Below, one piece after another: positions 15,214 through 59,082 of a stretch of DNA of 64,000 bases. The position numbers and the translations under genes are program-made. Source of the DNA: Elusimicrobiota bacterium (lineage in GTDB: Bacteria > Elusimicrobiota > Elusimicrobia > UBA1565 > UBA9628); contig JACQPG010000050.1 in assembly GCA_016207665.1 (NCBI GenBank), positions 5,519 through 69,518 on the forward strand. The letters are read 5' to 3'. Position 1 is the stretch's first letter. Each line of letters starts with the position of its first letter. Under the pieces are notes generated by a model. The model searched no databases. It saw only the letters and a program-made list of their open reading frames with translations, and was not told the DNA's origin.

Positions 15214-15327
15214 AGGCCCAGGTTCCGCTTCATCTTATAGACGGTGTTCAAGGTCACCCCGAGCACCGACCGGCCAATCGCATACCACCGCGCGGGTAAT
15301 TGTCATATAATCTTCACACGTCCGTCG

Positions 15328-16416
15328 ATGAGCCCCTCCCTAATGTCTTTCGAACCGATATTCCGCCTGAGCCTGCTGATCAGCCTGGCCTTGCTCGGCT
15401 TCGTGGCGCTGCTCATCGTGGCCCTCATCATCTCCAAGGGCCTGCGCCAGCTCTGGCTTCGTTACTCGAGCTGGCGAGAGGATCGGTTTAGACGTTTGGT
15501 GCTGGGGGCGATCGCGACCGATCATCCCCAGGCGGCCGGCCGGCTTTTGTCTTGCTTGTCCTGGCCCGGGGACAGGAGGGTGGTCAAGGCGTATCTATTG
15601 CGCCTGGCCGAGGGGCTCAGCGGGCATGGACGGGAGCGCATATACGCGCTGTTCGAGAGCGCCGGATTTGCCGACGACGAGATAGGACGGTTGGGCAGTT
15701 GGCGCTGGTGGGTCCGAGCCCAGGCCGCCCAGAGGCTGGGGATCATGATGTGCAGCAAGGCCGCGCCCGAGCTGGTGCTGGCGCTCGATGACCGCTCCAT
15801 CGAGGTGAGGCTCATGGCCGCCTGGGCCCTGGGCCGCTTCGGCGATTGGCCGGCGCTTTTCCGGATCGTGGAGGCCTTGGCGCGCTACTCGAAGCTGGCC
15901 ACGCTCCGGGTGACCGAAATCATCATGCAGATCGGCGCGGCCGCCGGTCCCATGGTCGAGCTGTTGCTCAAGCATGCCGATGAGGACGTCAGGCTCCTGG
16001 CCGTTCGGCTGGCCGGGCTGATCAAGGATGAGAAGGCCGCCGGGCAATTGCGGGAGTTCGTGAAGGATCCATCCGTCGACATCAGGGTCGCTTCCTGCGA
16101 GGCCCTCGGGGCCTTGGGCGGGGCGCGGGGCGCGAGCTCGCTGGTGGAGGCTCTCTCGGACGCGGCCTGGCCGGTGCGCGCCAAGGCGGCGCTCATGCTG
16201 GGCCGTCTGGCCTTGCCCCAGACCGCCGAGGCCTTGAGGACGACTCTTTCGGACCCGGCCTGGTGGGTGAGGCTCAACAGCGGACGGGCCTTGAGCCGGA
16301 TGGGTCAAGCGGGGCGCGAGATACTCCAGTCCGCGCTCTCCCATCCCGATCGCTTCGCCCGTGATATGGCGGCGCAATGGCTCGATGAATCCGAGCCGGC
16401 GCTGGGGACCCGATGA
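15328..16416 (+). CDS. HEAT/PBS-lyase repeat membrane protein
   Basis: N-terminal TM LSLLISLALLGFVALLIVALII, then multiple HEAT-like repeats (VRLMAAWALGRFGD, VRLLAVRLAGL, VRVASCEALGALG, VRAKAALMLGRL, VRLNSGRAL). Start moved to the ATG at 15328, downstream of a TGTCATATAAT box. Confidence 0.65.
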   Translation: MSPSLMSFEPIFRLSLLISLALLGFVALLIVALIISKGLRQLWLRYSSWREDRFRRLVLGAIATDHPQAAGRLLSCLSWPGDRRVVKAYLLRLAEGLSGHGRERIYALFESAGFADDEIGRLGSWRWWVRAQAAQRLGIMMCSKAAPELVLALDDRSIEVRLMAAWALGRFGDWPALFRIVEALARYSKLATLRVTEIIMQIGAAAGPMVELLLKHADEDVRLLAVRLAGLIKDEKAAGQLREFVKDPSVDIRVASCEALGALGGARGASSLVEALSDAAWPVRAKAALMLGRLALPQTAEALRTTLSDPAWWVRLNSGRALSRMGQAGREILQSALSHPDRFARDMAAQWLDESEPALGTR

Positions 16417-18587
16417 CGGGTTTCAATCTTTACGCGGCTCTCGAGATATACCAGGCGGGCCTGCTCTTCTATTTCATCGCGGTCAATATAGTCTATCTGG
16501 CCCTTTTCCTGATCTCGCTCTCGGCCATCGTCGATTATCTGCATCACAAGGGCTATCGCAACGCGCAGGAGGTGTTGCGCTCCCGATTGACGCCCCCGAT
16601 CTCGGTGCTTGTCCCGGCCCACAATGAAGCCGTGAGCATCGTCGCCAGCGTGCGCAGCCTGCTTCAATTGAACTATCCTGAATACGAAGTGATCGTGATC
16701 AACGACGGCTCGACAGATCGCACCCTGCAAGCCTTGACCGAGGCCTTCGGCCTGAGGAAGACCAAGCGCGTCTATCACCGCACCTTGCCCACGGCCGAGG
16801 TGCGCGGCCTATACGCAGGAGCCAAGACCTTTCCTTGGGTCACGCTCACGGTCATAGACAAGGAGAAGGGCGGCAAGGCCGATGCTCTCAACGCGGGCAT
16901 CAACGTCTCCCAATACCCGCTCTTCTGTTCGGTGGACGCCGACTCGATACTCGAGCGCGATTCTCTATTGCGCGTGGTCATGCCCTTCATGGAACGCTTC
17001 GCGGTCATGATGGGGGTCGGCGGCATCGTGCGGGTGGCCAACGGTTGCGCGATATCCGACGGATTCGTGCAACGGATCCGGTTGCCGAGGCGCTGGCTGC
17101 CGTGCTTCCAGGCCGTCGAATACCTCAGGGCGTTCTTATCCGGCCGCGTCGCCTGGAGCCGTATGAACGGTCTGCTGATTCTTTCCGGGGCCTTTTCTCT
17201 GTTCCGCAAGGACCCCGTCTTGGCGGCCGGCGGCTATCAACGCGGCAGCGTGGGCGAGGACATGGACCTGGTGGTGAGGCTGCACATGAACGCCGCGGGA
17301 CGGTCCGGGCCGCGCGAGATCGCCTTTGTCCCGGATCCGGTCTGCTGGACCGAGGTGCCGGAGAGCTTCAAGACGCTTTGGCGGCAACGCAATCGCTGGC
17401 ATCGGGGGCTGGGCCAGTCCTTGGCCGGCCACGCCAGCCTGATCTTTAACCCGCGCTTCGGCCTGATCGGGATTTTCGCGGCCCCGTATTTCTGGTTCGT
17501 GGAGTTCCTAAGTCCGGTGATCGAGCTTTCGGGCTACGCGGTGTTCGCGCTCTCGTGGGCGCTCGGGTCGGTACGCTGGGACGCCTTCGCCGCCTTCCTA
17601 ATACTATCCATATTGATGGGAGTGAACCTGTCCTTGCTGGCCGTTCTCCTTGAGGAGTTCACCCTTCATCGCTACCCCAGGATACGGGACTTGCTCAAGC
17701 TCCTGGCCTGCGCCGTCGCGGAAAATCTGGGCTATCGGCAGTTCGTCAGCCTTGCCCGCCTTCATGGGCTGATCGATTGGCTGCGCAACGAGACCTTGTG
17801 GGGCTCCATGGATAGAAAGGGCCTGCAGTCGGCGGCTCTGTTCCTGGGCCTTTTGGCCACCGCTTGCTTGTGCCGGGCTTCCATGGCGCTCAACGCTGGG
17901 CTCGGCTATGAGGATTTCTCTTTCGCCGGAGCGGGCCGCAGCTCGTGGATCAGGGTTGATCGCCGTCTTTCCCGGGGGTCCATCTCCGGCGGCCTTACGC
18001 GCATCGAGCGCTTCGGCGAACGCGAGGCCCAAGGGGAGCTGGGTCTGGGCGCCAGGCTCGGCCCGAGCGCGGGACTCGAGTTGGGGGCCAGCGCTTCCCC
18101 GGAGGCTCATATACTCCCCGAGTGGTCGGCCGCGGCGGTGCTTTACTGGAACCCCCGGAGGCCGGTGACGATCAGCCCCGGCCTGCGCAGCGCCGGCTTT
18201 CGCGCGGCCGGGGTGCATACGGCCAGCCTGGGGATCGAAGCCCAGGCCGCGCCCGGCCTCGCGGTTTTGGTCCGCGGCTTCGGCAGCGTGACTCAATTCC
18301 GCGGCTCGCGCGCCGAGGACTGGACCCCCGCCGTCCTGCTCGCGCTCCGCGCTCAGCCGATGGATTGGCTTCTTGTCGCGCCCTCGTTCGCCTATCGGGA
18401 GGAATCCTTCGAGGCCGGCGCTCCGGGCAGCGGCATCTCGCGCACCTTCCAAGCGCATGCCGCCCGTCTCGATCTATCGGCCGGCCGAGAGCGGGGCTGG
18501 GCCGCGAGGGCGGCTTGGGAATACGAGAGAAGGGTCCCTAAGAACTTCGTCAGGCGCTACGAGTTGGGACTCAGCTACCGGTTCTAG
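16413..18587 (+). CDS. processive family-2 glycosyltransferase (PgaC/IcaA/NodC-like synthase) with about 260-aa C-terminal extension
   Basis: 724 aa. N-terminal TMs, DGS (VINDGSTD), DxD (SVDADSILERD) and QRNRWHRG (the Q/RxxRW processivity motif), then C-terminal TM helices. The frame stays open a further 260 codons (see finding). ATGA overlap with the HEAT gene. Confidence 0.85.
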   Translation: MTGFNLYAALEIYQAGLLFYFIAVNIVYLALFLISLSAIVDYLHHKGYRNAQEVLRSRLTPPISVLVPAHNEAVSIVASVRSLLQLNYPEYEVIVINDGSTDRTLQALTEAFGLRKTKRVYHRTLPTAEVRGLYAGAKTFPWVTLTVIDKEKGGKADALNAGINVSQYPLFCSVDADSILERDSLLRVVMPFMERFAVMMGVGGIVRVANGCAISDGFVQRIRLPRRWLPCFQAVEYLRAFLSGRVAWSRMNGLLILSGAFSLFRKDPVLAAGGYQRGSVGEDMDLVVRLHMNAAGRSGPREIAFVPDPVCWTEVPESFKTLWRQRNRWHRGLGQSLAGHASLIFNPRFGLIGIFAAPYFWFVEFLSPVIELSGYAVFALSWALGSVRWDAFAAFLILSILMGVNLSLLAVLLEEFTLHRYPRIRDLLKLLACAVAENLGYRQFVSLARLHGLIDWLRNETLWGSMDRKGLQSAALFLGLLATACLCRASMALNAGLGYEDFSFAGAGRSSWIRVDRRLSRGSISGGLTRIERFGEREAQGELGLGARLGPSAGLELGASASPEAHILPEWSAAAVLYWNPRRPVTISPGLRSAGFRAAGVHTASLGIEAQAAPGLAVLVRGFGSVTQFRGSRAEDWTPAVLLALRAQPMDWLLVAPSFAYREESFEAGAPGSGISRTFQAHAARLDLSAGRERGWAARAAWEYERRVPKNFVRRYELGLSYRF

Positions 18588-27197: not shown

Positions 27198-28145
27198 ATG
27201 AAAGCCCTTTTTTACGGAACCCCGGCCGTGGCCGTCCCCTATCTCGAACTGCTGGCGCGGCGCGCGGAGCTGGTCGCGGTCGTGACGCAGCCGGACAGGC
27301 CCGCGGGCAGGGGCCTGGAACTGCGGCCCTCTCCGGTCAAGGCCAAAGCCCTCGAGCTGGGGCTGGCCGTCTTGCAGCCTGAGAAGCCCTCCGAGATCGT
27401 GGCTCGGCTGGCCGGTCTCAAGCCCGACCTGGCCGTGGTGGTGGCGTATGGCCGTATCCTCAAGCGGGACGCGCTTCTGGTCCCGAGGCTAGGCAGTTTG
27501 AACGTCCACTTCTCGCTGCTTCCCCGCTACCGCGGAGCGGCGCCGGTGCAATGGAGCCTCATACGCGGCGAGACCAAGACGGGCGTCACGCTGTTCTGGC
27601 TGGATGAGGGAATGGACACGGGCCCGGTTTTCCTTCAGAGAGAACAGGCCATCGATCCCGAGGATGACGCCCGCACTCTCATGGAAAAGCTGCAAGCCCT
27701 GGGCGTAGTCCTGCTCGGCGAGGCCCTGGATGAGATCGAAGCGGGGCGCCTGCCGCGCCGCGAGCAAAGCGGCGAGCCCTCGGCGGCCCCCTTGCTTCGC
27801 TCCTTGGACGCCCGTTTGGAGGTGGATCGCCCGGCGATCGAGTTGCATAACCGGGTCAGAGGGCTGGCCCTTGGTCCCAAGCCCTATTTGGAGCTGCGCG
27901 CGGGCGCCGGACTGACGAGATTGATCGTGCTCAAGACCAAGATCGGCGCGGGGCCGGGCGATGAAAAAGCGCCGCCCGGCGCTATCTTACGCGTTGATCC
28001 AGGCGCCGGTTTTTTGCTAAAATGCCGGACCAGCTGTTTGTGGCTCCTTTCAGTTCAACCTGAGGGAAAAAAGCCGGTAACTGCTGCGAATTTTCTTAAC
28101 GGCCTCCGCTTAGGAGCGGGGGACTTTTTGCCATTGTGTCTATAG
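27198..28145 (+). CDS. fmt: methionyl-tRNA formyltransferase
   Basis: N-terminal formyl-transferase domain (SLLPRYRGAAPVQWSLIRGE) and C-terminal domain. def-fmt synteny. Confidence 0.9.
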   Translation: MKALFYGTPAVAVPYLELLARRAELVAVVTQPDRPAGRGLELRPSPVKAKALELGLAVLQPEKPSEIVARLAGLKPDLAVVVAYGRILKRDALLVPRLGSLNVHFSLLPRYRGAAPVQWSLIRGETKTGVTLFWLDEGMDTGPVFLQREQAIDPEDDARTLMEKLQALGVVLLGEALDEIEAGRLPRREQSGEPSAAPLLRSLDARLEVDRPAIELHNRVRGLALGPKPYLELRAGAGLTRLIVLKTKIGAGPGDEKAPPGAILRVDPGAGFLLKCRTSCLWLLSVQPEGKKPVTAANFLNGLRLGAGDFLPLCL

Positions 28146-29149
28146 ACGATAACGAAGCCGCCACGTCGACCAGCGAGCCGGAGATCGAAACATCCGGCCC
28201 TCGCATGGTGGGCCGTTGGGAAATGATCGGGATCGCCTTGGTCTTGGCCGGCTTGGCCCTGTATCTGTTTCAGTGGGCCCTCGAGGGCGCCATACATAGC
28301 CGCGGCGCGCAGACCGTCCCCGACCTCAAGGGGAAATCCGTCACGGCCGCCCTGGAGATGCTGTCGGCCCTTAATCTCGGTCTGAAAAAGGAAAGCGCCG
28401 AATTCAACAGCTCCGTTCCCATAGCCTCGGTGATCCGCCAAGATCCCCCCGGCGGAACCGTGGTGCGCGAGGGAAAGATCATCAGGATCGTCGTCAGCCA
28501 GGGCGGCGAGACCGTGCTCACGCCCGGGGTGGCGGGCTTGCCTCTGCGAAACGCGGAGATGCTGCTGCGCCAGAACCAGCTGCTCTTGGGCGAGGTGGGC
28601 GAGAGCTATTCCCTGCGTCATTCCAAGGGAGTGGTATTGTCCCAGGATCCCAAGGCCGAATCAAGCGTCGAGCGCAACTCATTGGTCAACGTGGTCGTCT
28701 CGGACGGGCCGCCTCCGGCGGGAGTCGTTCTCATGCCCGATTTCCTCCGCAAGAACATCAGCGAGGCGCGTTCCTGGGCCGCGGGCGCGGAAGTCCAGGT
28801 CAAGGAATCCAAGGATTCCGCCTCGCTCTTCCCTTTCGGCACGATACTGAGCCAGGATCCCCAGCCGGACGCGGTCTTGAGCGCCGGCTCCAGGGTCTCT
28901 TTCGTGATCAGCGGGCGCTCCGGCAAGCCCGGCGAAGGACCGGCTACCCAAAATTTCAGCTACGAGCTTCCGCCGGGCGGCAGCGAGAGCTTGGTCCGCA
29001 TCGTGGTGGTGGATAAATACGGCGAACGCGAGCTCTTCAACGGCCTGCGCAAGCCCGGATCGAAAATCGATCTTCCCCTTCAGGAATCCGGAGGCGCTCG
29101 GATGAAGATCTATCTCAACGGCATCCTCGTCGAGGAGCGGGATCTGTGA
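28136..29149 (+). CDS. membrane-anchored PASTA-repeat protein (no kinase or PBP domain)
   Basis: TM MIGIALVLAGLALYLF, then three PASTA-like repeats (VPDLKGKSVTAALEML..., LTPGVAGLPLRNAEMLL..., VLMPDFLRKNISEARSW...). Confidence 0.7.
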   Translation: MSIDDNEAATSTSEPEIETSGPRMVGRWEMIGIALVLAGLALYLFQWALEGAIHSRGAQTVPDLKGKSVTAALEMLSALNLGLKKESAEFNSSVPIASVIRQDPPGGTVVREGKIIRIVVSQGGETVLTPGVAGLPLRNAEMLLRQNQLLLGEVGESYSLRHSKGVVLSQDPKAESSVERNSLVNVVVSDGPPPAGVVLMPDFLRKNISEARSWAAGAEVQVKESKDSASLFPFGTILSQDPQPDAVLSAGSRVSFVISGRSGKPGEGPATQNFSYELPPGGSESLVRIVVVDKYGERELFNGLRKPGSKIDLPLQESGGARMKIYLNGILVEERDL

Positions 29150-32200: not shown

Positions 32201-32557
32201 ATGCGGGATATCGGCCGGATTGCGGAGCATCGCGCCGCTCGATGGCTCGAGGACAAAGGCCATCTCATCCTGGCGCGCAATTGGCGCTCGGTTTTCGGCG
32301 AGATCGACATCATCATGAAGGACGGGGACTGCCTCGTCCTCGTCGAGGTGCGTTACCGGGCCCGCGCGGACTACGGTACTCCCGGTGAGACCGTAAACTG
32401 GTGGAAGCAGCGGCGCATCATCAAGACGGCCTTGATTTATATGCTGGACCTAGGCTGGGAAGGGCCCGTAAGGTTCGACGTGTTGGCGATGGGCCCCGAA
32501 GGGATCGAGCATATAAAGGATGCCTTTCAGCCTGGTCAGCGGCTGCCCTTCAGATAG
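32201..32557 (+). CDS. yraN: YraN-family (UPF0102) endonuclease-like protein
   Basis: 118 aa. GEIDIIMKDGDCLVLVEVRYR fits the UPF0102 pattern. rnhB-yraN synteny. Confidence 0.8.
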   Translation: MRDIGRIAEHRAARWLEDKGHLILARNWRSVFGEIDIIMKDGDCLVLVEVRYRARADYGTPGETVNWWKQRRIIKTALIYMLDLGWEGPVRFDVLAMGPEGIEHIKDAFQPGQRLPFR

Positions 32558-34062
32558 CTTTGTAGCTCGTCCAGGCTCATTTCCGAGACGCTCTTGCGCC
32601 CGGATTTCTCGTTTTCCCCGGCCGTGGACTTGGGTTCGGACGCGGGTTTGGGCGCTGCCACGGCCTGAGGAGCGGGCATGGGCCTGGGCGGCGCGCTGGT
32701 GGGAATGGCCGCCGTCGGAGTCGGCTCCGGCGACTGGGCGGCCGAGGGAGCCGGCTTTGCCGGAGCGGCCGAGGGAGCCGGCTTTGCCGGAGCGGCCGAG
32801 GGCGGCGTCTTCTGCGGTGCCGCTATAGGAGCGGGCTCTTCCTGCGCTTCGGAGCTCGCCGTGCTAGGCTCGGCCTCCGCTTGTGACGGGGCTGGCTCGG
32901 CCGGCATGGCGCCCCGCGCTCTTTCCCGGCGCGTTCGCGGCGCCGGTCTATTCGACGCCGGCTTGGGCATCGGCCGCCCGGCTATCGGAGCCTTGGCCCA
33001 TAGTCGATAAGCCGGCGCTTCTATCGCCATTCCCTCGAGCGCTTCGGCCAGCCTCAGATTCTTGCCTCCCCAGCGCGAGGCCTTGAGCGCGTCGAGATCA
33101 TGCCAGGAATTGAAATCCAAGGGCTTGATCGTCTGTTCGCGCAAATCGACTTGGAACGAGCGATCCTCCTCCGGAGCTCCCCTCCAATATCTCGCCTTGA
33201 CCGAGACCCGATATATCTCGGTCGATCCGGAGACCGCGTCGGCTTCCCACGCCAGCCGGTGATTGGCCTTAAGGAAACGACGGCCCAGAACGGCCCATTT
33301 TTCCTTGTCCTTGAGAATCTCGCTTTCCCCATCCTTGATCTTGCGGCCCTGTTTATCCAAGGCTTGGCTGGCCGACACCGCGAGAGCGGCCAGGGCCCGC
33401 CGCTCGTAGTATTCCCCGAGCGACTTGGGCGCCGACCAGCGCGAGGGACTGAGCGCGTCGGCGGCATTGGACGGCATGCGCGGCCCGGGGCGAGGCAGCG
33501 GGAAGGCGCGCGCGGAATCGATGGAGCGCTGGCGGCCTTGCTCCAAGGCGAGCTCCTGAGGGCTGGGCTGAGCCGGGGTCTCGACGGGAGAGGCCGGCTC
33601 GCTCGAGGCCGCGAGGGGCCCGTCCTGCCGCGGCAGGTCTCGGCTGGGAGAGGGTCTGCGCGTGATGTAATAGCCCATTCCCACGCCGAAGAGCGCGATG
33701 AACACCGCGGCCCAGGTGGAGCTGGACCAACGCGGCAATCCGATGCTTCCGCGCGGAGTCACGGTCGAGGGTCCGGGTTTGACCGCCTTCTCCGGCTCGG
33801 GTTGAGCCGAATCGGCCGCCGGCTCGGCCTTGGCGGGAGACTGAGCCGCCTTGAGGGGTTTGGGCGAGGGGGCCGGCTCGTTCCTTTCGCTCTTGCTGCC
33901 TGGCGGCCTAATGAGATAGTACTGCGCCGGTTTCCATTGGTCGGGGCTTTCGGTCCCTTCGGGGCAAATCAGGGTCTCGGGCGTGAATCCCTGGAGCTTC
34001 TTGAGCTCCTCGGCCTCGTAGGGACCTTGGGGCTGCTGGCCGTCGAACATCCAGTATTTCAT
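32536..34062 (-). CDS. membrane protein with N-terminal GYF/DUF4339-like cytoplasmic domain, one TM and Pro/Ala-rich repetitive periplasmic region
   Basis: 508 aa. N-terminus MKYWMFDGQQPQGPYEAEELKKL, TM WAAVFIALFGVGMGYYI, repeats PSAAPAKPA encoded by a 27-bp tandem repeat. Confidence 0.6.
   Translation of the reverse strand: MKYWMFDGQQPQGPYEAEELKKLQGFTPETLICPEGTESPDQWKPAQYYLIRPPGSKSERNEPAPSPKPLKAAQSPAKAEPAADSAQPEPEKAVKPGPSTVTPRGSIGLPRWSSSTWAAVFIALFGVGMGYYITRRPSPSRDLPRQDGPLAASSEPASPVETPAQPSPQELALEQGRQRSIDSARAFPLPRPGPRMPSNAADALSPSRWSAPKSLGEYYERRALAALAVSASQALDKQGRKIKDGESEILKDKEKWAVLGRRFLKANHRLAWEADAVSGSTEIYRVSVKARYWRGAPEEDRSFQVDLREQTIKPLDFNSWHDLDALKASRWGGKNLRLAEALEGMAIEAPAYRLWAKAPIAGRPMPKPASNRPAPRTRRERARGAMPAEPAPSQAEAEPSTASSEAQEEPAPIAAPQKTPPSAAPAKPAPSAAPAKPAPSAAQSPEPTPTAAIPTSAPPRPMPAPQAVAAPKPASEPKSTAGENEKSGRKSVSEMSLDELQSYLKGSR
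32741..32802. repeat. 27-bp tandem direct repeat (2 perfect copies + partial third) inside coding sequence
   Basis: gccgagggagccggctttgccggagcg repeated at 32741-32767 and 32768-32794, then a diverging partial copy. Encodes PAKPAPSAA repeats on the minus strand. Confidence 0.8.
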
Positions 34063-34934
34063 GGTTCCATTTTGATCGTGGGTCCCCGATCGGCGGACAC
34101 CACGGCCACCGTGATCTCTCCCCTTTCTCCGATGGGTTGTATCTCCAATTCGATCCGATTGGCATTGATCAGCAGGAAGCGCGAAAAATAGCGCTTGAGA
34201 AGGGCGGCCCGGGACTTAGCGAAACGGCTCTGAGGCTGCTCATCGTAGAGGATCATCTTGCAGGCCTTTTGACGCAGGTCCGTGCGCCGCAGCGCCCTGC
34301 CCATGGCCTCGAGAAACGGCTCCGCCTCCGAGCGCAGCGCCGGTTTGTCCGGTTCGAATAGCAAGGAATTGGCAGCCTCGAGATGGATGTCCCCTAAGTA
34401 CTGCTTCACCGCCAAGGATTTCAGGGCGATAGGCTCGCTGGCCACGACAAACGATCCTTCCGCGCGCTTGCCGGTGAAGCGAAAATGATAAGGCCGGCCC
34501 ACCCGGGCGGCCTGGCGTCCCTCCTGATCCGATCCGCTCCACTCTATCCGTTCCTTGAGCGGACCCTGGCCCTCCGTCTTCCAGAGCACCTGGCCCCCAT
34601 CGAGCACCTCGAACACCCAGCTCTCGTAAGGAGAGGCGATGGAACGCGGCGAAAGGCTGAGATAAGGCGGTTCCGGGAATGGCTGCTCCAGCCGGGAAAA
34701 CCGCGCTTGAACCTTGACCTCCGGGGTCTTGATCTCCACCGGCTTCTTGTAGATGTCGAGAGTGCGCACCACCTCGTCGATCACGGCGGGCGATACCTCG
34801 GGCTGGGGCAGCTGCACCGGAGGACCGCTCGAACCTCGCGACTTGATCGTGATCTTCTGCCGTATCTGCGAGGTTTCCGGCTCCGAGGCGGTCGAGGCCG
34901 CCAGAAGAACCGCCGAAAGCGCGATGATCATCAT
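34059..34934 (-). CDS. periplasmic protein with degenerate C-terminal OmpA-like domain (Pal/MotB-like)
   Basis: Signal peptide MMIIALSAVLLAASTASE. C-terminal region LLFEPDKPALRSEAEPFLEAMGRALRR...ILYDEQPQSRFAKSRAALLKRYF...RIELEIQPIGE follows the OmpA_C pattern but lacks the GHTD motif. ATGA overlap with exbD2. Confidence 0.5.
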   Translation of the reverse strand: MMIIALSAVLLAASTASEPETSQIRQKITIKSRGSSGPPVQLPQPEVSPAVIDEVVRTLDIYKKPVEIKTPEVKVQARFSRLEQPFPEPPYLSLSPRSIASPYESWVFEVLDGGQVLWKTEGQGPLKERIEWSGSDQEGRQAARVGRPYHFRFTGKRAEGSFVVASEPIALKSLAVKQYLGDIHLEAANSLLFEPDKPALRSEAEPFLEAMGRALRRTDLRQKACKMILYDEQPQSRFAKSRAALLKRYFSRFLLINANRIELEIQPIGERGEITVAVVSADRGPTIKMEP

Positions 34935-35359
34935 TTCTTGGCCGGTTCGGTGGCCATGGCTATCTCCCGCGCTCCCGCTCTTTTGGCCGCGGCCAACAGT
35001 CGCTGCACGATCTTGTATGGGACGCTTTCGTCGACTCTCAGCAGGACCACAACGGAAGGCGATTTGGAAAGCTCCACCTTCAAGGCGGGCTCGAGCCGGT
35101 CCCATCCGACGTCCACGGCGCGCAAGGCGATGCGCCCGTCCTTGGTATAGGTCACGACCAGGGACTGGTCCTCGACCGGAGGCAGCGAGGCCTTCGGCAG
35201 TATGACGGGATGGTTGGGATAGGACAGGAGAGGGGCGGTCACGAAGAGGATCACCAGCAGCACCAAAGAGATGTCTATGACCGGGATGATGTTCACCTCG
35301 GTCACCGGCTCGGCTTCAGCCTGGAGACGCCGTAGCTTGAGAAGCTGGTATTTCGCCAT
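34931..35359 (-). CDS. ExbD/TolR family protein (second copy)
   Basis: 142 aa. Single TM IIPVIDISLVLLVILFV and periplasmic ExbD domain. Confidence 0.8.
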   Translation of the reverse strand: MAKYQLLKLRRLQAEAEPVTEVNIIPVIDISLVLLVILFVTAPLLSYPNHPVILPKASLPPVEDQSLVVTYTKDGRIALRAVDVGWDRLEPALKVELSKSPSVVVLLRVDESVPYKIVQRLLAAAKRAGAREIAMATEPAKK

Positions 35360-35810
35360 CCTCGTCTTCCGCGATCGTCTGCACCAGCGCCACCGACTCG
35401 GCGCCGCAGGACTTGATGAGTTCCAGGGTCCGCACTACCATGCCATGGGCGATCTCCGGGCCGGGGGCCAAGAACACCTTCCGGTCCGTGCGCCGAGCCA
35501 GCTCTTGCCTCATGAAAATAGCGAAACGGTCGGTGTCGGAGAAGAATTGATTCCCCACCACCAGGCCCGTCGGTCCGAGAGCCACCACCAGCACCACTTC
35601 CGCGGGCTTCTGCGGCTCGGGGGGCGTAAGATCCTCGCTTTCCAGCCTCTCCTGTTTGGCCGCGGTCTTGACCTTGAGCATCGATTGAGTCATCATCGGA
35701 GAGAGCACCAGCAGGATGATCAGCAGCACCAGAGACACATCAGCCAGGGGCACGACGTTCACTTCGCTGATCTCCCGCGCTTCCTCCGCCTGATGAAAGG
35801 GAGAGCTCAT
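35316..35810 (-). CDS. ExbD/TolR family protein (first copy)
   Basis: Start MSSPFHQAEE at 35810 (ATGA overlap with exbB). TM VVPLADVSLVLLIILLVL. The long upstream part of the listed ORF is not coding. Confidence 0.8.
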   Translation of the reverse strand: MSSPFHQAEEAREISEVNVVPLADVSLVLLIILLVLSPMMTQSMLKVKTAAKQERLESEDLTPPEPQKPAEVVLVVALGPTGLVVGNQFFSDTDRFAIFMRQELARRTDRKVFLAPGPEIAHGMVVRTLELIKSCGAESVALVQTIAEDEDGEIPASQATASPG

Positions 35811-36469
35811 GGTCCTAGCCGGGGACCGGGGCGCATCGGAGCTTGGATCGGAGGAGAGGCCTGGGGAAGCAGTTCGGCGAGCTCGAAGACCCAAAGATCG
35901 GCTTGGCTGAGCCTTTGCCGGGCCGCTAGGGTGAAATAGTTGTAGAACACCGCGCTCATCACGGCGACTCCTATGCCGGCCGCGGTGGCGACCAAGGCCT
36001 CGGAGATGCCGGCCGCCACGACCACCGGTCCGCCTGCTCCGGCGATAGCCAGGTCGTGAAAGGCGCGCATGATTCCCAGCACCGTCCCCATCAAGCCGAT
36101 CAATGGCGCGATGAAGCTGGCCGTGCCGAAGAAGCCGAGCCGCCGATTGAGCTCCATGTGCATGCGCTGGCGGTAAAGCTGAAAAGCCTCGACCAGCCGC
36201 TCCGTGTTTGGGTCCTTGAGATTGAGCAGCCTCTCGAGGGCTTCTCCCATGATTCCGGACTGGACTTGGCATATCCCTAGGGCGCCTTCGTGGTCTCCTT
36301 TATCCAATTTGGCCTTGACCTTTTCCCAAAAACCGCCGGGCAAGGGGCAAGCCACCCAAAACACGTAGAAACGCTCGATCGCCTGGGCTACGATAAGGAT
36401 AGACAGCACCAGGAGAATCGGCATGGTGATGCTGACTTTCAGCATCTGTCCGAAACTCATCTGTTCCAT
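35807..36469 (-). CDS. ExbB/TolQ/MotA family proton-channel protein
   Basis: 220 aa. Three TMs with the conserved GLMGTVLGIMRAF...GISEAL region. Confidence 0.85.
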   Translation of the reverse strand: MEQMSFGQMLKVSITMPILLVLSILIVAQAIERFYVFWVACPLPGGFWEKVKAKLDKGDHEGALGICQVQSGIMGEALERLLNLKDPNTERLVEAFQLYRQRMHMELNRRLGFFGTASFIAPLIGLMGTVLGIMRAFHDLAIAGAGGPVVVAAGISEALVATAAGIGVAVMSAVFYNYFTLAARQRLSQADLWVFELAELLPQASPPIQAPMRPGPRLGP

Positions 36470-36529
36470 ACGTTTGGAGTATAGGCCAGAATGGATTTGG
36501 CCGCAAGGGCGAATATATTAAGGAACAGG

Positions 36530-38917
36530 TTAAAGAGCGGCGCCGGAGGAACTTCGTGCGGACGAGTGAAGTAGCGCGTCTAGACGGCGGCGCGCCGCCT
36601 CGAAATCCACATGGCCCTTGGACGCGACCCGCAATATCTCATGGTAAAGAGGCATGGCCTTGCGCCTGTCCTGGCGCAACTCATAGAGAAGTCCGAGCCG
36701 GAGAAGGCCATGGACCCTGAGGGGATGGCGGGCGGGCTTGGCCGCGCGAAGGGTCTCGTAGGCCTTGATGGCCAAGGCCGGCTGCTTGAGCTTTTCGCGG
36801 ATCTTGGCCGTGTTGTACACGGCTTGTATATGGTTGGGATCCGAGCTTGAGACCTTGGCATAGGACTCGGCCGCGGGAGCCAAATGCCCCAAGGACTCCC
36901 TGAGTTGGCCCATCTGAAAATGGATCCAGGACGATTTCGCGTGTTTGGGAAAGCGCTTGATCAGATCCTCATAGGCGGCCAGGGCGCGGCCCTTGTTCTC
37001 CGTCTTTCCCGAGGCGACGGCTCGGTTGAAGAGGGCATCCGCGGCCGAGCCATCCTTGGCCGAGCCTCCCAAGGCGAAGGCGGAGGCGGCTTCTTCGTAG
37101 CGGCGGAGCTCGTAGAGCAGGTGGCCGAGGCGCAGCGCCGCCTGTGGCAGCAGCTTATGGGATCGGTGCTCGGAGAGGAATCGACGGAATGTCTTGATGG
37201 CTTGCTCAGTGTCGTCCGTTTTCAGCTGCGACTCGGCCAGAAAGAACACGCTTTCAGCGACATGGGCCGATTTGGGGAAGTCCGAAGCGTAGGTGGCGAA
37301 GAGTTTTTGGGCTCTTTGGAAATCCCCGCTCTGGAAAGCCTTGACCCCGAGCTCCCAGCGGATATGGGAGACGATCGGATGCCTGATGTATTGGTTGGCC
37401 GCCTTGATCAAGCCTGGGTTATCGCGATCGCCCATCCAGTAAGAGGTGAGCAGAAGCTCCTCGACCTCATAGGCGCGGGAGTCGCCCGGGTATTTCTCCA
37501 GGAATCTCGAATACAGCGGGATCGCCTCCTTGAAGCGCTTCCCGTTGTAATGAACCTGCGCCATGAGAAGCAGGGATTCCTTGGAATCGGAATCACCTCC
37601 CCCCTCCCCCAGGTTGCGGTAATGGGTGATCGCCTGTTGCGAGCGGCCTAGACGGGCATAGAGTTGGCCCAGCTGGAGATGGGCGTCGCGGGTGAAGACC
37701 GAATCGGGGCTGCGGCTGAGTATTTGCGAAAAGGCGTCTATGGCCTCCTGACTGCGATCGAGCCTCTTAAGAGCCAGTCCCTGCTGGTACAAGGCCATGC
37801 CCAATTGGGGATGTTCCGGGTGCCTCTTAGCGAAGCGCGCATAGGCCGCGGCCGCTTCCCGAAGCTTGGCGGTCTTGTAAAGGATGTGAGCCTCGGAGAT
37901 GCGAGCGGAGGCTCCGAGATGGATCAGGCCCCAGCGCTCCGCCGAGGCTTGGGCCCGGCGCAGCTCGGCCAAGGCTTGATCCGGGCGGCCGGATCGATCG
38001 AACTGGGCCGCGCTCGCGCCCAAGGCATAGGCGGTCAGCGGAGAATCGAGTTTGGAATCGATCACGGCCCTATAGCGGCGGAGGGCTTGGCTCAGCTTTC
38101 CCTCCCGCTCTTCGGCCGCGGCCTGCCAGACCTGGGCGAGAGTGGACCATCGGTCGGTCTTGGAGCCGGAAAGCGCGTTGACGGCCGACCACACGCCGAG
38201 ATTATCGCCTTGGGCCAGCGCGGAGGCGGCCAGCAGGTAAAGGGCTTTGTTCTTGAGCGCTCCTTCGGCAGCGCCGTCGGCCACGGCTTGTAGTATGCGC
38301 GCGGCCCGCGCGGGATCCTTGAGACGCAGATAAAGAGCGCCCGCCAGCAGTTTTAATTCAGAGGCGGATCTGTGGTTCGGATGCATCTCCAGGAATTGCC
38401 GGCAGGCCTCGAGCGCGTCGGCCGGAGAGTTTTGGCGCAGGGCGTCCTGGATCCTCGCCAGGGCGGACTCCGGCCGCCGGCCCACCACCACCGGGATTTC
38501 GGGCTCGGGGTCGGAGTAAGGAAGCTGATACTCTTCGGGGAAGGTCTGCATCAACTGACGGGCCCGGTCGGACCATTCGGAGTCCGGATAGCGTCCCACG
38601 AGAATGTCGATGTGGTGGCGAGCGCCGGTAAAGTCCCCTTTCCGCGCCGCCAGTTGGGCCATGCGGTAGAGGTCCAGCTCCATGAGATGATCGCGAGGCG
38701 CGGTCATTTTGGTGCTCCAATTCAATGAGCTCCTATAGTTGGCCTGGGCTCCCGCGTAATCGCCCAGTTGATAGGCGGTCTCGGCCAGGAAGGCCGTGGC
38801 TTCCATGTTGAGCTGATGCCAGTTCTCCAGGGGAGCCGGAGCGCCCTCTTCCTGGGCCTCGGCGTAGGCGCTTGCCGAGGTCATGGCCAAGATCAGGGCG
38901 GTCAGCATCCGTTTCAT
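36530..38917 (-). CDS. large secreted TPR-repeat protein (YbgF/CpoB-like repeats)
   Basis: 795 aa. Signal peptide MKRMLTALILAMTSASAYA. Many TPR-like A/Y/L-rich helical repeats. Confidence 0.75.
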   Translation of the reverse strand: MKRMLTALILAMTSASAYAEAQEEGAPAPLENWHQLNMEATAFLAETAYQLGDYAGAQANYRSSLNWSTKMTAPRDHLMELDLYRMAQLAARKGDFTGARHHIDILVGRYPDSEWSDRARQLMQTFPEEYQLPYSDPEPEIPVVVGRRPESALARIQDALRQNSPADALEACRQFLEMHPNHRSASELKLLAGALYLRLKDPARAARILQAVADGAAEGALKNKALYLLAASALAQGDNLGVWSAVNALSGSKTDRWSTLAQVWQAAAEEREGKLSQALRRYRAVIDSKLDSPLTAYALGASAAQFDRSGRPDQALAELRRAQASAERWGLIHLGASARISEAHILYKTAKLREAAAAYARFAKRHPEHPQLGMALYQQGLALKRLDRSQEAIDAFSQILSRSPDSVFTRDAHLQLGQLYARLGRSQQAITHYRNLGEGGGDSDSKESLLLMAQVHYNGKRFKEAIPLYSRFLEKYPGDSRAYEVEELLLTSYWMGDRDNPGLIKAANQYIRHPIVSHIRWELGVKAFQSGDFQRAQKLFATYASDFPKSAHVAESVFFLAESQLKTDDTEQAIKTFRRFLSEHRSHKLLPQAALRLGHLLYELRRYEEAASAFALGGSAKDGSAADALFNRAVASGKTENKGRALAAYEDLIKRFPKHAKSSWIHFQMGQLRESLGHLAPAAESYAKVSSSDPNHIQAVYNTAKIREKLKQPALAIKAYETLRAAKPARHPLRVHGLLRLGLLYELRQDRRKAMPLYHEILRVASKGHVDFEAARRRLDALLHSSARSSSGAAL

Positions 38918-38918
38918 A

Positions 38919-39941
38919 TCAGCTCATCAGGAAGTGGAACGTGACGGTTCCCCAGGTCGCCGGATTGTCCGGCCGAGCCGGGATGGATTCGAATTTCCAT
39001 TTCTTGAGCGCCTCGAGGGCCAGTTGATCGATCTCGGGAAAGCCCGAGGTCTTGCGTATCACCGCGCCGAGCTTGACCGATCCATCCTCCAAAACTTGGA
39101 ATTTCACCTCGACGGTCAGCTCCAGACCCCGCTTGGAGACCCAATCGGGGCTTTGCGGCAGCACTCGCCGTATCAGACGCCGATTTCCCGCGGGCCCGTC
39201 GATGGACCAGGACAGTCCTCCGCCGTTGGGCCCCAGGCCTCCGCCCGAGGCCTTGCGGTATTTCTGGTCGCGCCCCTCGGCCTCAAGATCGTAGACCGGC
39301 TCGGCGCCGCTTCCCACGCCCTCAAGACCGCCCTTGGCCGGCGCCAGCCCCGGCTCGGCATGGGACACGGAGCCGGTCGGGGCGACGTCCTCATCTGCGT
39401 TCGAGTCGTTGGGCGCGTCAGACAGGACCTCGTCCGGATCGCGCAGGCTGGCTATTTCCTGCTCAAGCAGGGCCTTCTGCCGGACTTTTTCCGCCTTCAT
39501 TTCCGCCAGCCGCTGCGCTCGCTCGGCCCGCTCCTGGGCCAGCCGCAGCGCCTTTTCCCGCGCTTGAGCCGCGCGTTCGGCAGCCAGGGCCTCAGCGCGA
39601 GCCTTGCGCTCCGCAGCCAGAGCCTTGGCTCGGGGATTGGTCTTCTGCTTGTTCTTGGTCTTGATCGGGGTCTTGGGCTTGGCGACGCGCTCCGGTCGAT
39701 AAGCTCCAGGTCCATGCCGGGGAACGCCTTCTCGGCCCTGTCCTCCCGGCATGGGGGCCAGGGTCGGGGTGGGAGGAGGGGCGGCGACGAAATCGACCGA
39801 GACTATGGCGGTTGGAGGCGGCTTATGAGATCCGGCCCAATACAGCGTCGGGTTGGCCGAGAGCACGGCCGTATGGATGAGGCAAGCGGCCATCAACGAG
39901 GCTATATCCCGGGCCCTCTCGCTCCGTCGTAATATTCCCAT
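38919..39941 (-). CDS. TonB/TolA-family energy transducer
   Basis: N-terminal TM IASLMAACLIHTAVLSA, Pro-rich segment, Lys/Ala/Glu-rich helical region (KALAAERKARAEALAAERAAQAREKALRLAQERAERAQRLAEMKAE), C-terminal TonB_C-like domain (LELTVEVKFQVLEDGSVKLGAVIRKTSGFPEIDQLALEALKKWKFE). Confidence 0.75.
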   Translation of the reverse strand: MGILRRSERARDIASLMAACLIHTAVLSANPTLYWAGSHKPPPTAIVSVDFVAAPPPTPTLAPMPGGQGREGVPRHGPGAYRPERVAKPKTPIKTKNKQKTNPRAKALAAERKARAEALAAERAAQAREKALRLAQERAERAQRLAEMKAEKVRQKALLEQEIASLRDPDEVLSDAPNDSNADEDVAPTGSVSHAEPGLAPAKGGLEGVGSGAEPVYDLEAEGRDQKYRKASGGGLGPNGGGLSWSIDGPAGNRRLIRRVLPQSPDWVSKRGLELTVEVKFQVLEDGSVKLGAVIRKTSGFPEIDQLALEALKKWKFESIPARPDNPATWGTVTFHFLMS

Positions 39942-40096
39942 TATTTAATAAGTGTATGGTCCCTCTTTGGAGCGATCAAGCAAAAATTCGGTTATGTTTC
40001 GGTAAAGTGAAATCCGTCGTTCCCGTAACAACTTTTAAACACAGGACTGCTAAAAACTACCGCTGGTGGGTTAAACGAATGACGGAGGACCTTGGG

Positions 40097-40258
40097 ATGA
40101 TCAACGTGCTTGAGCTCAGCCGCCTCTATGAAAACCAGTGGGTTGTCTTGGATCGCAGCCAAAAGGTGCTTGACCATGGCCCGCAGCTTGACAGCCTGTG
40201 GAGCAAATATGGACCCATCGCGGGCAAGATCACTTTCTATTTCGCCTCGGCGACCTGA
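40097..40258 (+). CDS. small hypothetical protein (DUF5678-like pattern)
   Basis: 53 aa MINVLELSRLYENQWVVLDRSQKVLDHGPQLDSLWSKYGPIAGKITFYFASAT. GGAGGA 7 nt upstream. The rest of the listed ORF upstream is AT-rich and probably non-coding. Confidence 0.4.
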   Translation: MINVLELSRLYENQWVVLDRSQKVLDHGPQLDSLWSKYGPIAGKITFYFASAT

Positions 40259-58161: not shown

Positions 58162-59082
58162 CTATGCGGATGGCGTCTTTCCGGCGAGGCTCTTGAGTAT
58201 ATTGTCGACGTCGTAGGCCGACAGCAGAAGCAGCGCGTCGCGGCCCTCGACGCGGGCGTAGTAGTAGGAGGGCTTTTCCCCTTTGGCGGCGACCTTGGCC
58301 TTGCCGATCATCCAGCGCGCCTTGCGCTCGCCGGCCTGCAGCTCCACGGAGATCAGGGGCTTGGCCAGGCCGGTCTCCGATACCTTTTCCGAGCCCGAGC
58401 CGAAATCGGAGACGCGAAGGGCGGACAAGGTGGAGATCAAGGCGTCGAGCCTGTCCTTGGGAAGGGAGCCCGACCAGCCCGCGCTGGATTTCCTGAGCTC
58501 GAATGCCTGATTGCCGTAGGTGAGGCGTATCGAGCCGGCGGAGCCGAGATCGATCGAGGAGAGCTGTCTCTGCCGGAAATCGTTGGCCGACCTGTTCATT
58601 TGATAGGAATCGACGCCCGAGGCGATGTAGACGGGCTTGTCCGATTCGTAACGGAAATAATGGCTGTCATGACCCATGGCGGTCTTGCCGAAGTATCCGT
58701 CGAAAACGGGCTCGGATTTTCCCTGAACGAAAAGGCGCACGCGCGAGGCGCTCGAGTCATTGAGCTCGTAATCGGGATAGGATGAAGGATCATCGGAGAG
58801 CCGGGAGCCGATCGACAGCCGGAAGAGGCCGGTCAAGAGCTCCTGGCAGGCCGAGGGATCGGCCCCATCCGGGGGCTGGGCCAGGCGCCAGCTCCCATCG
58901 CGGCTTTCCAATGAAACGGACCGTTCACCCTTCCTTATCTCGATGCGGGACACCGAGCCCTTATCCAGCTCCTTGAGCGGTTCTTGGGCCTTGGGAGGCC
59001 GGGAGGATCTCCAAAGCAACAAGCCGGCAGCGCCCGAAAGGATCAGGGCGCAAGAGGCTAGGACGAGAAAGCGCTTAGGCAT
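58162..59082 (-). CDS. DUF4340-domain protein (GldG-associated)
   Basis: TM FLVLASCALILSGAAGLLLW, then a periplasmic body. Start at the ATG at 59082. Confidence 0.6.
   Translation of the reverse strand: MPKRFLVLASCALILSGAAGLLLWRSSRPPKAQEPLKELDKGSVSRIEIRKGERSVSLESRDGSWRLAQPPDGADPSACQELLTGLFRLSIGSRLSDDPSSYPDYELNDSSASRVRLFVQGKSEPVFDGYFGKTAMGHDSHYFRYESDKPVYIASGVDSYQMNRSANDFRQRQLSSIDLGSAGSIRLTYGNQAFELRKSSAGWSGSLPKDRLDALISTLSALRVSDFGSGSEKVSETGLAKPLISVELQAGERKARWMIGKAKVAAKGEKPSYYYARVEGRDALLLLSAYDVDNILKSLAGKTPSA

Follow-up and report, generated by a model that had tools for sequence, protein, structure and literature searches.

Which machine is encoded by seven consecutive open reading frames (ORFs) on the minus strand of a 64-kb stretch of DNA from an Elusimicrobiota bacterium (contig JACQPG010000050.1; the whole stretch is referred to below as the window), and how does it relate to Ton and Tol-Pal, the two textbook systems through which energy of the inner membrane reaches the outer membrane? 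According to the argument of a recent survey, more motor-driven systems await discovery, and no Tol-Pal can be identified in Bacteroidota (PMC12204202). For five of the seven genes, which occupy positions 32536-39941 and have plus-strand genes on either flank, firm profile assignments were obtained: a transducer with a TonB_C domain, a tetratricopeptide repeat (TPR) protein, ExbB, and two ExbD paralogs. An earlier note on this DNA, made from the sequence alone, had recognized here a proton-motive-force-type envelope cluster of the Ton/Tol family, a diagnosis that our analysis supports; overall, the observations in that note are largely correct, and its interpretation is right in kind and wrong in particulars. 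The best explanation, to which we assign about an even chance, is that the region encodes a self-contained, proton-driven periplasmic force transducer of the Ton/Tol family that is arranged in two adjacent transcription units. The seven genes are as follows:

38919-39941, minus strand: TonB-like force transducer, 340 amino acids (aa); PF03544 and TIGR01352
36530-38917, minus strand: TPR protein, putative periplasmic scaffold, 795 aa; TIGR02795, YfiO and TPR families
35807-36469, minus strand: ExbB/TolQ-type proton channel subunit, 220 aa, three transmembrane (TM) helices; PF01618, 91 bits
35316-35810, minus strand: ExbD/TolR paralog 1 (ExbD1), 164 aa; PF02472, 49.8 bits; TM Asp kept (PLADVSL)
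34931-35359, minus strand: ExbD/TolR paralog 2 (ExbD2), 142 aa; PF02472, 74.3 bits; TM Asp kept (PVIDISL)
34059-34934, minus strand: P6 (gene 6), 291 aa; AlphaFold2 (AF2) model, Foldseek and ortholog alignment
32536-34062, minus strand: accessory membrane protein (GYF protein, gene 7), 508 aa; GYF_2 match below threshold, AF2 model and homolog alignment

The junctions, read from the sequence, include a gap of 1 nt between the tonB-like and TPR genes, a gap of 60 nt between the TPR gene and exbB, 4-nt ATGA overlaps at exbB/exbD1, exbD2/P6 and P6/GYF, and a 44-nt overlap at exbD1/exbD2, which bears out the earlier description of seven minus-strand genes with tiny or overlapping junctions. Rfam and tRNA scans of the cluster region produced no match. 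The database entries identical to the products of genes 6 and 7 are hypothetical proteins (HY549_04300 and HY549_04295, respectively) from an Elusimicrobia metagenome-assembled genome (MAG). For comparison, 80 related loci were retrieved with the ExbB query, namely, 45 loci that are nearly all labelled as Elusimicrobiota MAGs and 35 non-Elusimicrobiota loci; these matches agree with the Elusimicrobiota source of the window and not with the Fibrobacteres-Chlorobi-Bacteroidetes (FCB) group, where the genome had been placed previously.

Motor, transducer and TPR protein

The ExbB protein keeps the conserved Thr in GLMGTVLG and ATAAG and is 56-70% identical across the Elusimicrobiota loci. It scores 82.8 bits against the TolQ model TIGR02796 (cutoff 221) and 65.6 bits against the ExbB model TIGR02797 (cutoff 206); because the latter equivalog is far below its cutoff, we assign only family-level membership. 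ExbD1 and ExbD2 reach 54.2 and 72 bits, respectively, against the TolR model TIGR02801 (cutoff 127.3), and for all three motor proteins, the scores of the TolQ/TolR models exceed those of the ExbB/ExbD models. The two ExbD paralogs share only 29% identity with each other, compared to 43-64% (ExbD1) and 50-70% (ExbD2) with their own orthologs, and are thus an old, maintained pair. In this respect, they match AglQ and AglS of Myxococcus, which are modelled as a heterodimer inside an AglR pentamer (PMC11761067). Judging by sequence, the motor and the transducer look functional.

In the TonB-like protein, aa 260-338 match the TonB_C domain (PF03544) with 34.4 bits (cutoff 24.6), a comparison that had been chosen beforehand as one on which the assignment could fail. 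This protein also matches TIGR01352 (tonB_Cterm; 43.4 bits, cutoff 27.1) and PF13103 (28.5 bits, above 22), and stays below the cutoff of the TolA model TIGR02794 (26.1 vs 59.45 bits). The TM helix carries His23 (CLIHTAVLS; the corresponding stretch of E. coli TonB is VCIHGAVVAG). About 15 residues past the TM His, there is a strand, TAIVSVDFVA (aa 44-53), that resembles the "motor box" reported for every TonB and TolA protein (PMC12204202); a Pro-rich segment is present as well, and a helical spacer of 60-70 residues rich in Lys, Ala, Glu and Arg (aa ~104-167) is followed by TonB_C. The TM His, the motor box ([AS][IV]P[IV]EFV) and the charged spacer are kept in at least 12 orthologs; the middle region of the orthologs is 130-350 residues long, with a K/A/E/R/Q fraction of 0.39-0.61 and 6-12% Pro. 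Thus, the combination of a TonB C-terminus with a TolA-like Lys/Ala/Glu helical region, proposed in the earlier note, holds at the level of composition, and the spacer recurs in orthologs.

The TPR protein contains a type-I signal peptide without a lipobox and at least five TPR triads of the YbgF/BamD type. It reaches 177 bits against TIGR02795 (ybgF), albeit only as a sum over five stretches, and 92 bits against YfiO, and falls short of the CpoB model PRK10803 (56.2 vs 383 bits). CpoB/YbgF is a protein of about 260 aa that consists of a coiled coil and one TPR domain, so the protein encoded here is indeed, as had been remarked, far larger, and can be described as an oversized CpoB/BamD-like protein. 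Its orthologs show 36-48% identity within Elusimicrobiota and 23-28% identity in the cassettes of other phyla.

Gene order across phyla

The gene order TonB-like, TPR, ExbB, ExbD1, ExbD2, P6 is found in about 45 Elusimicrobiota loci, that is, essentially in every locus that is long enough. In the 35 non-Elusimicrobiota loci, whose sources include Eisenbacteria, Krumholzibacteriia, Latescibacterota and Zixibacteria, TPR comes first and is followed by ExbB, ExbD, ExbD and TonB. In nine of these, the ORF directly after TonB matches a hidden Markov model of P6 weakly but over two domains, and a clear match is found in locus L046. All six of the distant, 300-aa, non-Elusimicrobiota relatives of P6 that were placed on contigs are encoded immediately downstream of a TonB_C gene, and the full cassette, TPR (~1000 aa)-ExbB-ExbD-ExbD-TonB-P6, is present wherever those six contigs are long enough. 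Because the same six genes occur across Elusimicrobiota and in other phyla, the cassette is widespread rather than a lineage-specific variant, as had been suggested, and Elusimicrobiota differ only in where tonB is placed. One locus, L002 (CAZRIP010000038.1, 7178-11889), encodes a TonB-like protein (266 aa), an isocitrate-dehydrogenase-like protein, a universal stress protein, ExbB-ExbD-ExbD and the GYF protein; in most other genomes, the isocitrate-dehydrogenase-like gene follows P6.

P6, an Ig and OmpA-like domain protein

P6 consists of a signal peptide (aa 1-17), a strand motif (QKITIKS, aa 26-32), a Pro-rich linker, an invariant FPEPPYL segment (aa 86-92), an immunoglobulin (Ig) domain of the FlgD type (aa ~92-177) and a degenerate OmpA-like domain (aa 183-279). 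P6 has no Pfam match, and PF00691 in particular matches neither P6 nor eight 300-aa relatives. The AF2 model, which was built from an alignment of sixteen homologs, all unannotated, has a mean predicted local distance difference test score (pLDDT) of 79, with values above 90 in both domains (residues 90 to 280). In a Foldseek comparison with the PDB, the C-terminal domain matches OmpA-like/MotB-like domains with a probability of 1.0 and target-normalised template modelling scores of 0.5-0.63, the targets including PA0833, TagL, MotS, YfiB, Pal and OmpA (4b62, 9ljm, 6ikj, 5nhx, 1oap and others), and the middle domain matches the FlgD Ig-like domain. A sequence-profile search of the PDB yielded weak matches to the OmpA domains of RmpM and OmpA (E=0.06-0.2). 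Going by the model, the OmpA fold of P6 is real.

This domain has diverged from canonical OmpA domains at the positions that are aligned with the peptidoglycan-binding motif, where GH(T/A)D is replaced by LY(D/Q/S/H), which confirms the earlier observation on the loss of GHTD (the window copy reads LYDE). The loop after this position is shorter by about 10 residues, including the conserved Asn, and the orthologs do not share the Asp. There is no C-terminal NRRxE strand, and of LSxxRA, only Arg-Ala is kept in the Elusimicrobiota orthologs and varies in more distant relatives. The signal peptide is of type I, without a Cys, so that there is no lipobox and no lipid anchor. E. coli Pal produced no tblastn match in the window and the 80 loci. 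Lacking a lipobox, a PF00691 match and the peptidoglycan-binding loop, P6 is not Pal. The earlier designation "Pal-like" therefore stands with respect to the OmpA fold, the point on which it had been laid open to refutation and which the AF2 model and the Foldseek matches bear out, but not with respect to the identity with Pal, and the Ig domain had escaped attention.

A profile search of 1.84 billion representative proteins identified 33 representative orthologs of P6 (<1e-30) and ~250 relatives (<1e-3), many of them proteins of 290-345 aa that likewise have no OmpA Pfam match. Larger proteins that combine several FlgD_ig repeats with a canonical PF00691 domain also match the profile, which ties the P6 family to true OmpA-domain proteins. 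P6 is a new protein family, with ~250 representatives and without a Pfam model, and no description of either this family or the six-gene cassette was found in the literature searched. Directly downstream of the P6-like gene of one non-Elusimicrobiota cassette, and overlapping it by 4 nt, is a gene for a secreted protein of 274 aa (L085 9035-9859, L086 8193-9017) that has no Pfam match and whose C-terminus appears, by eye, to be another degenerate OmpA-like segment.

Inspection of 95 P6-family members revealed, just past the signal peptide, a motif of the form D-[VI]-T-[IV]-[KR]-G-[KE]-A, exemplified by VVSQDITIKGKG in Elusimicrobiota and by LDVTIKGEAKD, SEVVIKGEAKD and SITVEGEDRV elsewhere. 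The regular expression D-[VI]-T-[IV]-[KR]-G is found within the first 110 residues of 79 of the 95 proteins, mostly at positions 23-40, against 6.0 +/- 2.2 matches in shuffled N-termini and 0.13 matches per 110 residues in the rest of the proteins, a contrast that is inflated because the expression was written after the sequences had been seen. The residue that precedes the motif is acidic in 37 of 43 close orthologs. The motif region is disordered in the AF2 model, as expected of a strand-augmentation box. Its location at the start of the mature protein mirrors that of residues 22-34 of TolB, a segment that binds domain III of TolA by beta-strand augmentation, in the same way as TonB boxes bind TonB (PMC8928145), and the motif itself resembles known boxes, for example, DAVVV of Bacteroides SusC (PMC11467351). 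A second motif, RPFPEPP[YF]L, located before the Ig domain, is invariant across the whole P6 family and could plausibly be a TPR-binding peptide. Taken as a whole, these features suggest that P6 might be the dedicated, pulled target of the transducer, a tentative assignment, with the balance of probability tilted against it.

Two probable transcription units

Two promoter-like elements were identified by conservation:

36478-36507, minus strand: promoter-like element P2 before exbB; CTTGCGG, 17 nt, TATACT, ending 8 nt before the ATG at 36469
39951-39979, minus strand: promoter-like element P1 before the tonB-like gene; TTGATC, 17 nt, TACACT, 9 nt to the ATG at 39941

Elements of the P2 type (TTGNNN-N16-18-TA(T)ACT, 5-9 nt, with a mode of 7 nt, before the first ATG) are present in 34 of 39 Elusimicrobiota loci, where TTG(CGG/CAG/TCA) and a spacer, 17 nt long in 29 cases, are followed by TATACT; such elements also occur in loci in which the upstream gene is not TPR. 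The pattern has two occurrences in the window, against 0.00 expected, and 41 occurrences in 1.2 Mb of Elusimicrobiota sequence (both strands), about 33 of which, by our estimate, are the exbB site. In eight loci, TTGCGC-N17-TATCCT is located ~7 nt before the tonB-like ATG. A scan with consensus promoter and terminator models detected nothing above chance; P2 was missed because its -35 hexamer fits only three of the six positions of the E. coli consensus.

Given that P2 ends 8 nt before the ATG of exbB, a leaderless or near-leaderless exbB mRNA is predicted. The conserved element before exbB implies two transcription units and, together with the 1.5-4.7 kb of unrelated genes that separate TPR from exbB in five of the loci, makes the single operon that had been assumed earlier doubtful. 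The most economical reading of the sequence would be one unit that consists of the tonB-like and TPR genes and another one that encompasses exbB-exbD1-exbD2-P6(-GYF), such that the motor genes would be separated from the transducer genes by a conserved promoter of an apparently leaderless kind. Both units are probably leaderless, and the element conserved before the tonB-like genes suggests that transcripts without a leader may be widespread among these envelope genes, or in the phylum as a whole. The division into two units bears on separate transcription, which had been named earlier as a ground for refutation, but it leaves the functional link between the genes intact because this link rests on conserved co-location.

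Proposed mechanism

In the best-supported description, the cassette is a Ton/Tol-family force-transduction module, conserved across phyla, that combines a giant TPR scaffold and a helical transducer of the TonB type with a heteromeric stator and a dedicated, soluble Ig+OmpA-like partner. Under the explanation that we favor, the exbB-exbD1-exbD2-P6 unit would supply the inner-membrane motor and the soluble periplasmic P6 (plus the GYF protein in this lineage), and the unit that consists of the tonB-like and TPR genes would supply the inner-membrane-anchored transducer along with the large periplasmic TPR scaffold. By analogy with the solved ExbBD and TolQR motors, the motor would comprise an ExbB pentamer around an ExbD1/ExbD2 heterodimer, and the flow of protons through it would drive the transducer. 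By beta-strand augmentation, TonB_C would then capture the strand that is conserved where mature P6 begins; P6 would thereby be pulled or relocated, with the Ig and degenerate OmpA-like domains holding a cell-wall or outer-membrane partner, and the TPR protein would organise the complex. The likely role would be envelope maintenance that follows the TolA-TolB-Pal logic, without TolB or a lipoprotein.

A TonB gene that is always paired with P6 in multiple phyla would be a concrete candidate for a further motor-driven system, with three candidate contacts that can be named: between the N-terminal strand of P6 and TonB_C, between FPEPPYL and the TPR protein, and between ExbD1 and ExbD2. The stronger proposition, that the cassette is a third, undescribed class of Ton/Tol machines in Elusimicrobiota and several FCB-related candidate phyla, in which P6 combines the roles of TolB and Pal, is possible but rather unlikely in our judgement; if true, it would amount to a Tol-Pal analogue that needs neither TolB nor a lipoprotein Pal and in which the N-terminal strand of mature P6 is the box that TonB_C seizes and the degenerate OmpA-like domain of P6 is the envelope-binding end.

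Several observations, in addition to the inflated contrast of the motif statistics, weigh against the force-transducer explanation. None of the motor proteins comes near an equivalog cutoff, and the OmpA-like domain of P6 lacks the canonical binding loop. The P6 encoded in the window is an outlier with respect to the strand motif: QKITIKS has a Lys where 37 of the 43 close orthologs have Asp or Glu, and the match to the regular expression in this protein is located elsewhere, at aa 72. The classical TonB-box pattern (PROSITE PS00430) matches none of the 95 P6-family members, and for this reason, we call the motif only TonB-box-like. In L002, neither TPR nor P6 is found beside the motor genes. 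Finally, the contact between TonB_C and P6 is itself something that we infer from sequence features.

Relationship to known systems

The closest systems in terms of architecture are Tol-Pal, the ExbB-ExbD-ExbD-TonB clusters, the Agl-Glt core of Myxococcus (PMC3169522), the cassettes with von Willebrand factor A (vWA) domain transducers of the Planctomycetes-Verrucomicrobia-Chlamydiae (PVC) group, and PorE. Each of the named families fails at least one defining feature, except for family-level membership in TonB-ExbB-ExbD, for which we find an ExbB with the channel Thr, ExbD proteins with the TM Asp, and a TonB with the His, the motor box, the linker and TonB_C.

Accordingly placed, the cassette could be a housekeeping TonB-ExbB-ExbD system that energises outer-membrane transporters for nutrient import, with the TPR protein and P6 as accessory or stabilising components; this is the main rival of the explanation given above, and we consider it a minority possibility. 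It draws on the TonB_C and tonB_Cterm scores above the cutoffs, the presence of the TM His and the motor box, and the location of the cassette among housekeeping genes, as well as on the Flavobacteria, where ExbB-ExbD-ExbD-TonB clusters are treated as a TonB system. Indeed, the duplicated-ExbD TonB systems of Bacteroidota/FCB and Xanthomonas share with the cassette one ExbB, two ExbDs and a TonB_C protein with the TM His and the motor box, and in the retrieved non-Elusimicrobiota cassettes, a large TPR gene is adjacent. The present cluster differs from them in that tonB is upstream, together with TPR, rather than after the ExbDs, in the dedicated Ig+OmpA-like partner gene P6, and in the absence of a nearby transporter gene. 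No gene for a TonB-dependent transporter was found among the large ORFs of the window, a crude filter for transporter-like ORFs in the 80 loci retrieved only autotransporter-like proteins, and no Plug or TonB_dep_Rec genes are annotated in five Pfam-annotated cassette contexts. This negative result counts against an import system within the window, the 80 loci and the five contexts that it covers, a scope that in turn weakens the force-transducer explanation; in favor of an import system, TonB genes are often distant from their transporters (PMC12204202). What speaks more specifically against a housekeeping TonB is the strict cross-phylum adjacency of TonB and P6 and the conserved P6 strand, which call for a specific partnership, along with the inclination of the motor proteins towards the TolQ/TolR models.

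The same inclination, the 177 bits against TIGR02795 (ybgF), the helical charged spacer of the transducer and the OmpA fold of P6 would fit a true but shuffled Tol-Pal system, in which the TonB-like protein is TolA, the TPR protein is an expanded CpoB, P6 is a degenerate Pal, and TolB is lost or encoded elsewhere; moreover, non-proteobacterial TolA has been described as indistinguishable from TonB (PMC12204202). Shared with Tol-Pal are a proton-driven motor of the MotA/ExbB family; an inner-membrane transducer that carries a His in its TM helix, together with a helical spacer and a C-terminal domain of the TonB/TolA type; YbgF-type repeats in a TPR partner; an OmpA-fold protein in the periplasm; and a soluble periplasmic protein (P6 here, TolB there) whose mature N-terminus bears a conserved strand. 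Nevertheless, we regard this possibility as highly improbable. As had been noted, there is no TolB, with its beta-propeller, in the seven-gene cluster, nor is there one among the 20 other large ORFs of the window; P6 is a non-lipoprotein without a PF00691 match or the binding loop, and E. coli Pal matches nothing in the window and the 80 loci; the equivalog cutoffs of TolA, TolQ, TolR and CpoB are all missed; there are two different ExbD/TolR genes instead of the single one of Tol-Pal; the TPR protein is three times as large as CpoB; and the gene order is different. Furthermore, Elusimicrobium minutum has a separate Tol locus. Elusimicrobia are listed in the 2025 survey among the lineages with tol-pal loci, and tolA has been identified in E. 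minutum (PMC12204202), where we find tolQ-tolR-tolA with a single ExbD/TolR gene and a 146-aa unknown gene (CP001055.1; L087 6968-9231); ftsK, lolA and phospholipid genes are its neighbors. The annotation within 8 kb of this locus includes neither a TolB nor a Pal domain; a 1013-aa CarboxypepD_reg+OmpA protein is encoded 6 kb downstream of it. The E. minutum TolA (244 aa, TonB_2) shows no significant similarity to the TonB-like protein, and TolQ is only 36% identical to the ExbB of the window, about as much as the ExbBs from the cassettes of other phyla, from which it follows that the window cassette is a different, paralogous system and not the rearranged Tol-Pal of the earlier note. A search with a fragment of E. 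minutum TolA returned no protein of this MAG.

A relationship with the Agl-Glt core complex of Myxococcus, with a role in surface motility or trans-envelope trafficking and the GYF protein as a GltJ-like cytoplasmic link, appears improbable as well, even though the parts list corresponds to aglR/aglQ/aglS/gltG/gltC,D,E (PMC3169522): one TolQ-like protein with a heteromeric TolR-like pair, a TonB-like transducer, large periplasmic TPR proteins, and a single-pass membrane protein that bears a GYF domain. According to the model of Agl-Glt, GltD, a TPR protein, binds TonB-like C-terminal domains, a strand of GltF pairs with the TonB-like domain of GltG, and GltJ combines a GYF domain in the cytoplasm with a single TM helix and a periplasmic region that is disordered (PMC11761067). 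The matches to the respective NCBIfam models, however, are weak and far below the cutoffs (GltG NF033760, 12.3 vs 650; GltC NF033756, 13.4 vs 450; AgmX/PglI tail NF033768, 20.6 vs 40), there are no FHA or zinc-ribbon domain matches, and no outer-membrane Glt components, such as GltA/B/H/K, are encoded nearby. The layout of the GYF protein recalls that of GltJ but without a TonB-like end domain (there is no TonB_C in this protein), and the gene, with a GYF match below the threshold, is absent from most cassettes and confined to a small sublineage.

Two further systems combine similar modules. In the PVC group, cassettes of TPR, a tolQ-like gene, two tolR-like genes and a vWA transducer have been reported (Williams-Jones et al. 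2025, PMC12204202); the transducer described here ends in TonB_C rather than in vWA, and P6 follows the transducer or, in Elusimicrobiota, the motor. PorE of Bacteroidota, a lipoprotein with TPR, beta-propeller, Ig-like CP and OmpA_C domains, has been proposed to be a compact Tol-Pal analogue, and coupling to a TonB/TolA-like protein was suggested in the same paper. PorE and the cassette share the combination of TPR, Ig-like and OmpA-fold modules and putative envelope tethering; in the cassette, however, the modules are split over two soluble proteins (TPR and P6), there is neither a beta-propeller nor a lipid anchor, the OmpA-like domain is degenerate, and the genes are clustered directly with the motor.

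The GYF gene

The product of gene 7 consists of a GYF-like segment (aa 1-57), a TM helix (aa 112-133), a globular domain (aa 165-345) and a Pro/Ala-rich tail, and ends in a conserved motif, KxxxEMSLDELQSYLK (MSxDELxxYLK in the family). The gene contains one short repeat:

32738-32802, minus strand: perfect 27-nt tandem repeat, 2.4 copies, encoding SAAPAKPAP units (Tandem Repeats Finder, 100% matches, score 130)

The match to GYF_2 (PF14237) is below the gathering threshold (22.3 vs 25.8 bits), only one of five family members matches it at E<=0.01, and aa 1-60 have no sequence match in the PDB, although the N-terminal 57 residues are highly conserved in the family. The 180-aa globular domain has an AF2 pLDDT above 90; Foldseek found only weak NTF2-like matches for it (best E=0.59), and profile and sequence searches of the PDB found none. 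A cytoplasmic location of the GYF-like segment and a periplasmic one of the remainder is the default reading, and the flanking charges do not settle the topology. Hence the earlier description of a GYF/DUF4339-like domain that is linked by a TM helix to a repetitive tail is accurate for the TM helix and for the Pro/Ala-rich composition, falls below the cutoff for the GYF domain, overlooks the globular domain, and applies to the repeats only modestly.

A search of 5.8 billion clusters detected only five homologs, and the gene is present in three of the 80 loci (L002, L005 and L007). It is not a conserved member of the cassette but is shared by close relatives only. In L002, the gene directly follows exbD2, with no P6 or TPR nearby, so it appears to be tied to the motor.

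Other genes in the window

The cassette is bordered by housekeeping genes, with rpsP-trmD-rplS on one side and nucleoside salvage genes on the other. A small divergent ORF (39956-40258, plus strand) starts 14 nt from the tonB-like ATG; it is protein-like only in its second half, from Met43 (MTEDLGMINVLELSRLYENQWVVLD...), and has no Pfam match at 1e-4. If Met43 is the true start, ~140 nt are left as divergent promoter space.

Just upstream of rpe and the rpsP-trmD-rplS block, a gene on the plus strand (28136-29149) encodes a stand-alone protein in which a TM segment at the N-terminus is combined with three PASTA domains (126 bits), without a kinase or penicillin-binding domain. Elsewhere on this strand, one gene (16413-18587) joins a YaiO-like beta-barrel domain (PF19413, 33.8 bits) to a family-2 glycosyltransferase, a fusion that is unusual for an exopolysaccharide synthase; the gene is directly preceded and overlapped by one that encodes a HEAT-repeat protein (15244-16416, plus strand). 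An ABC_transp_aux/DUF7088 protein, a GldG-like auxiliary component, is encoded at 59075-60688 on the minus strand, within a block of minus-strand ORFs (58162-62364) that may encode an ABC transporter set of the gliding type or a related one.

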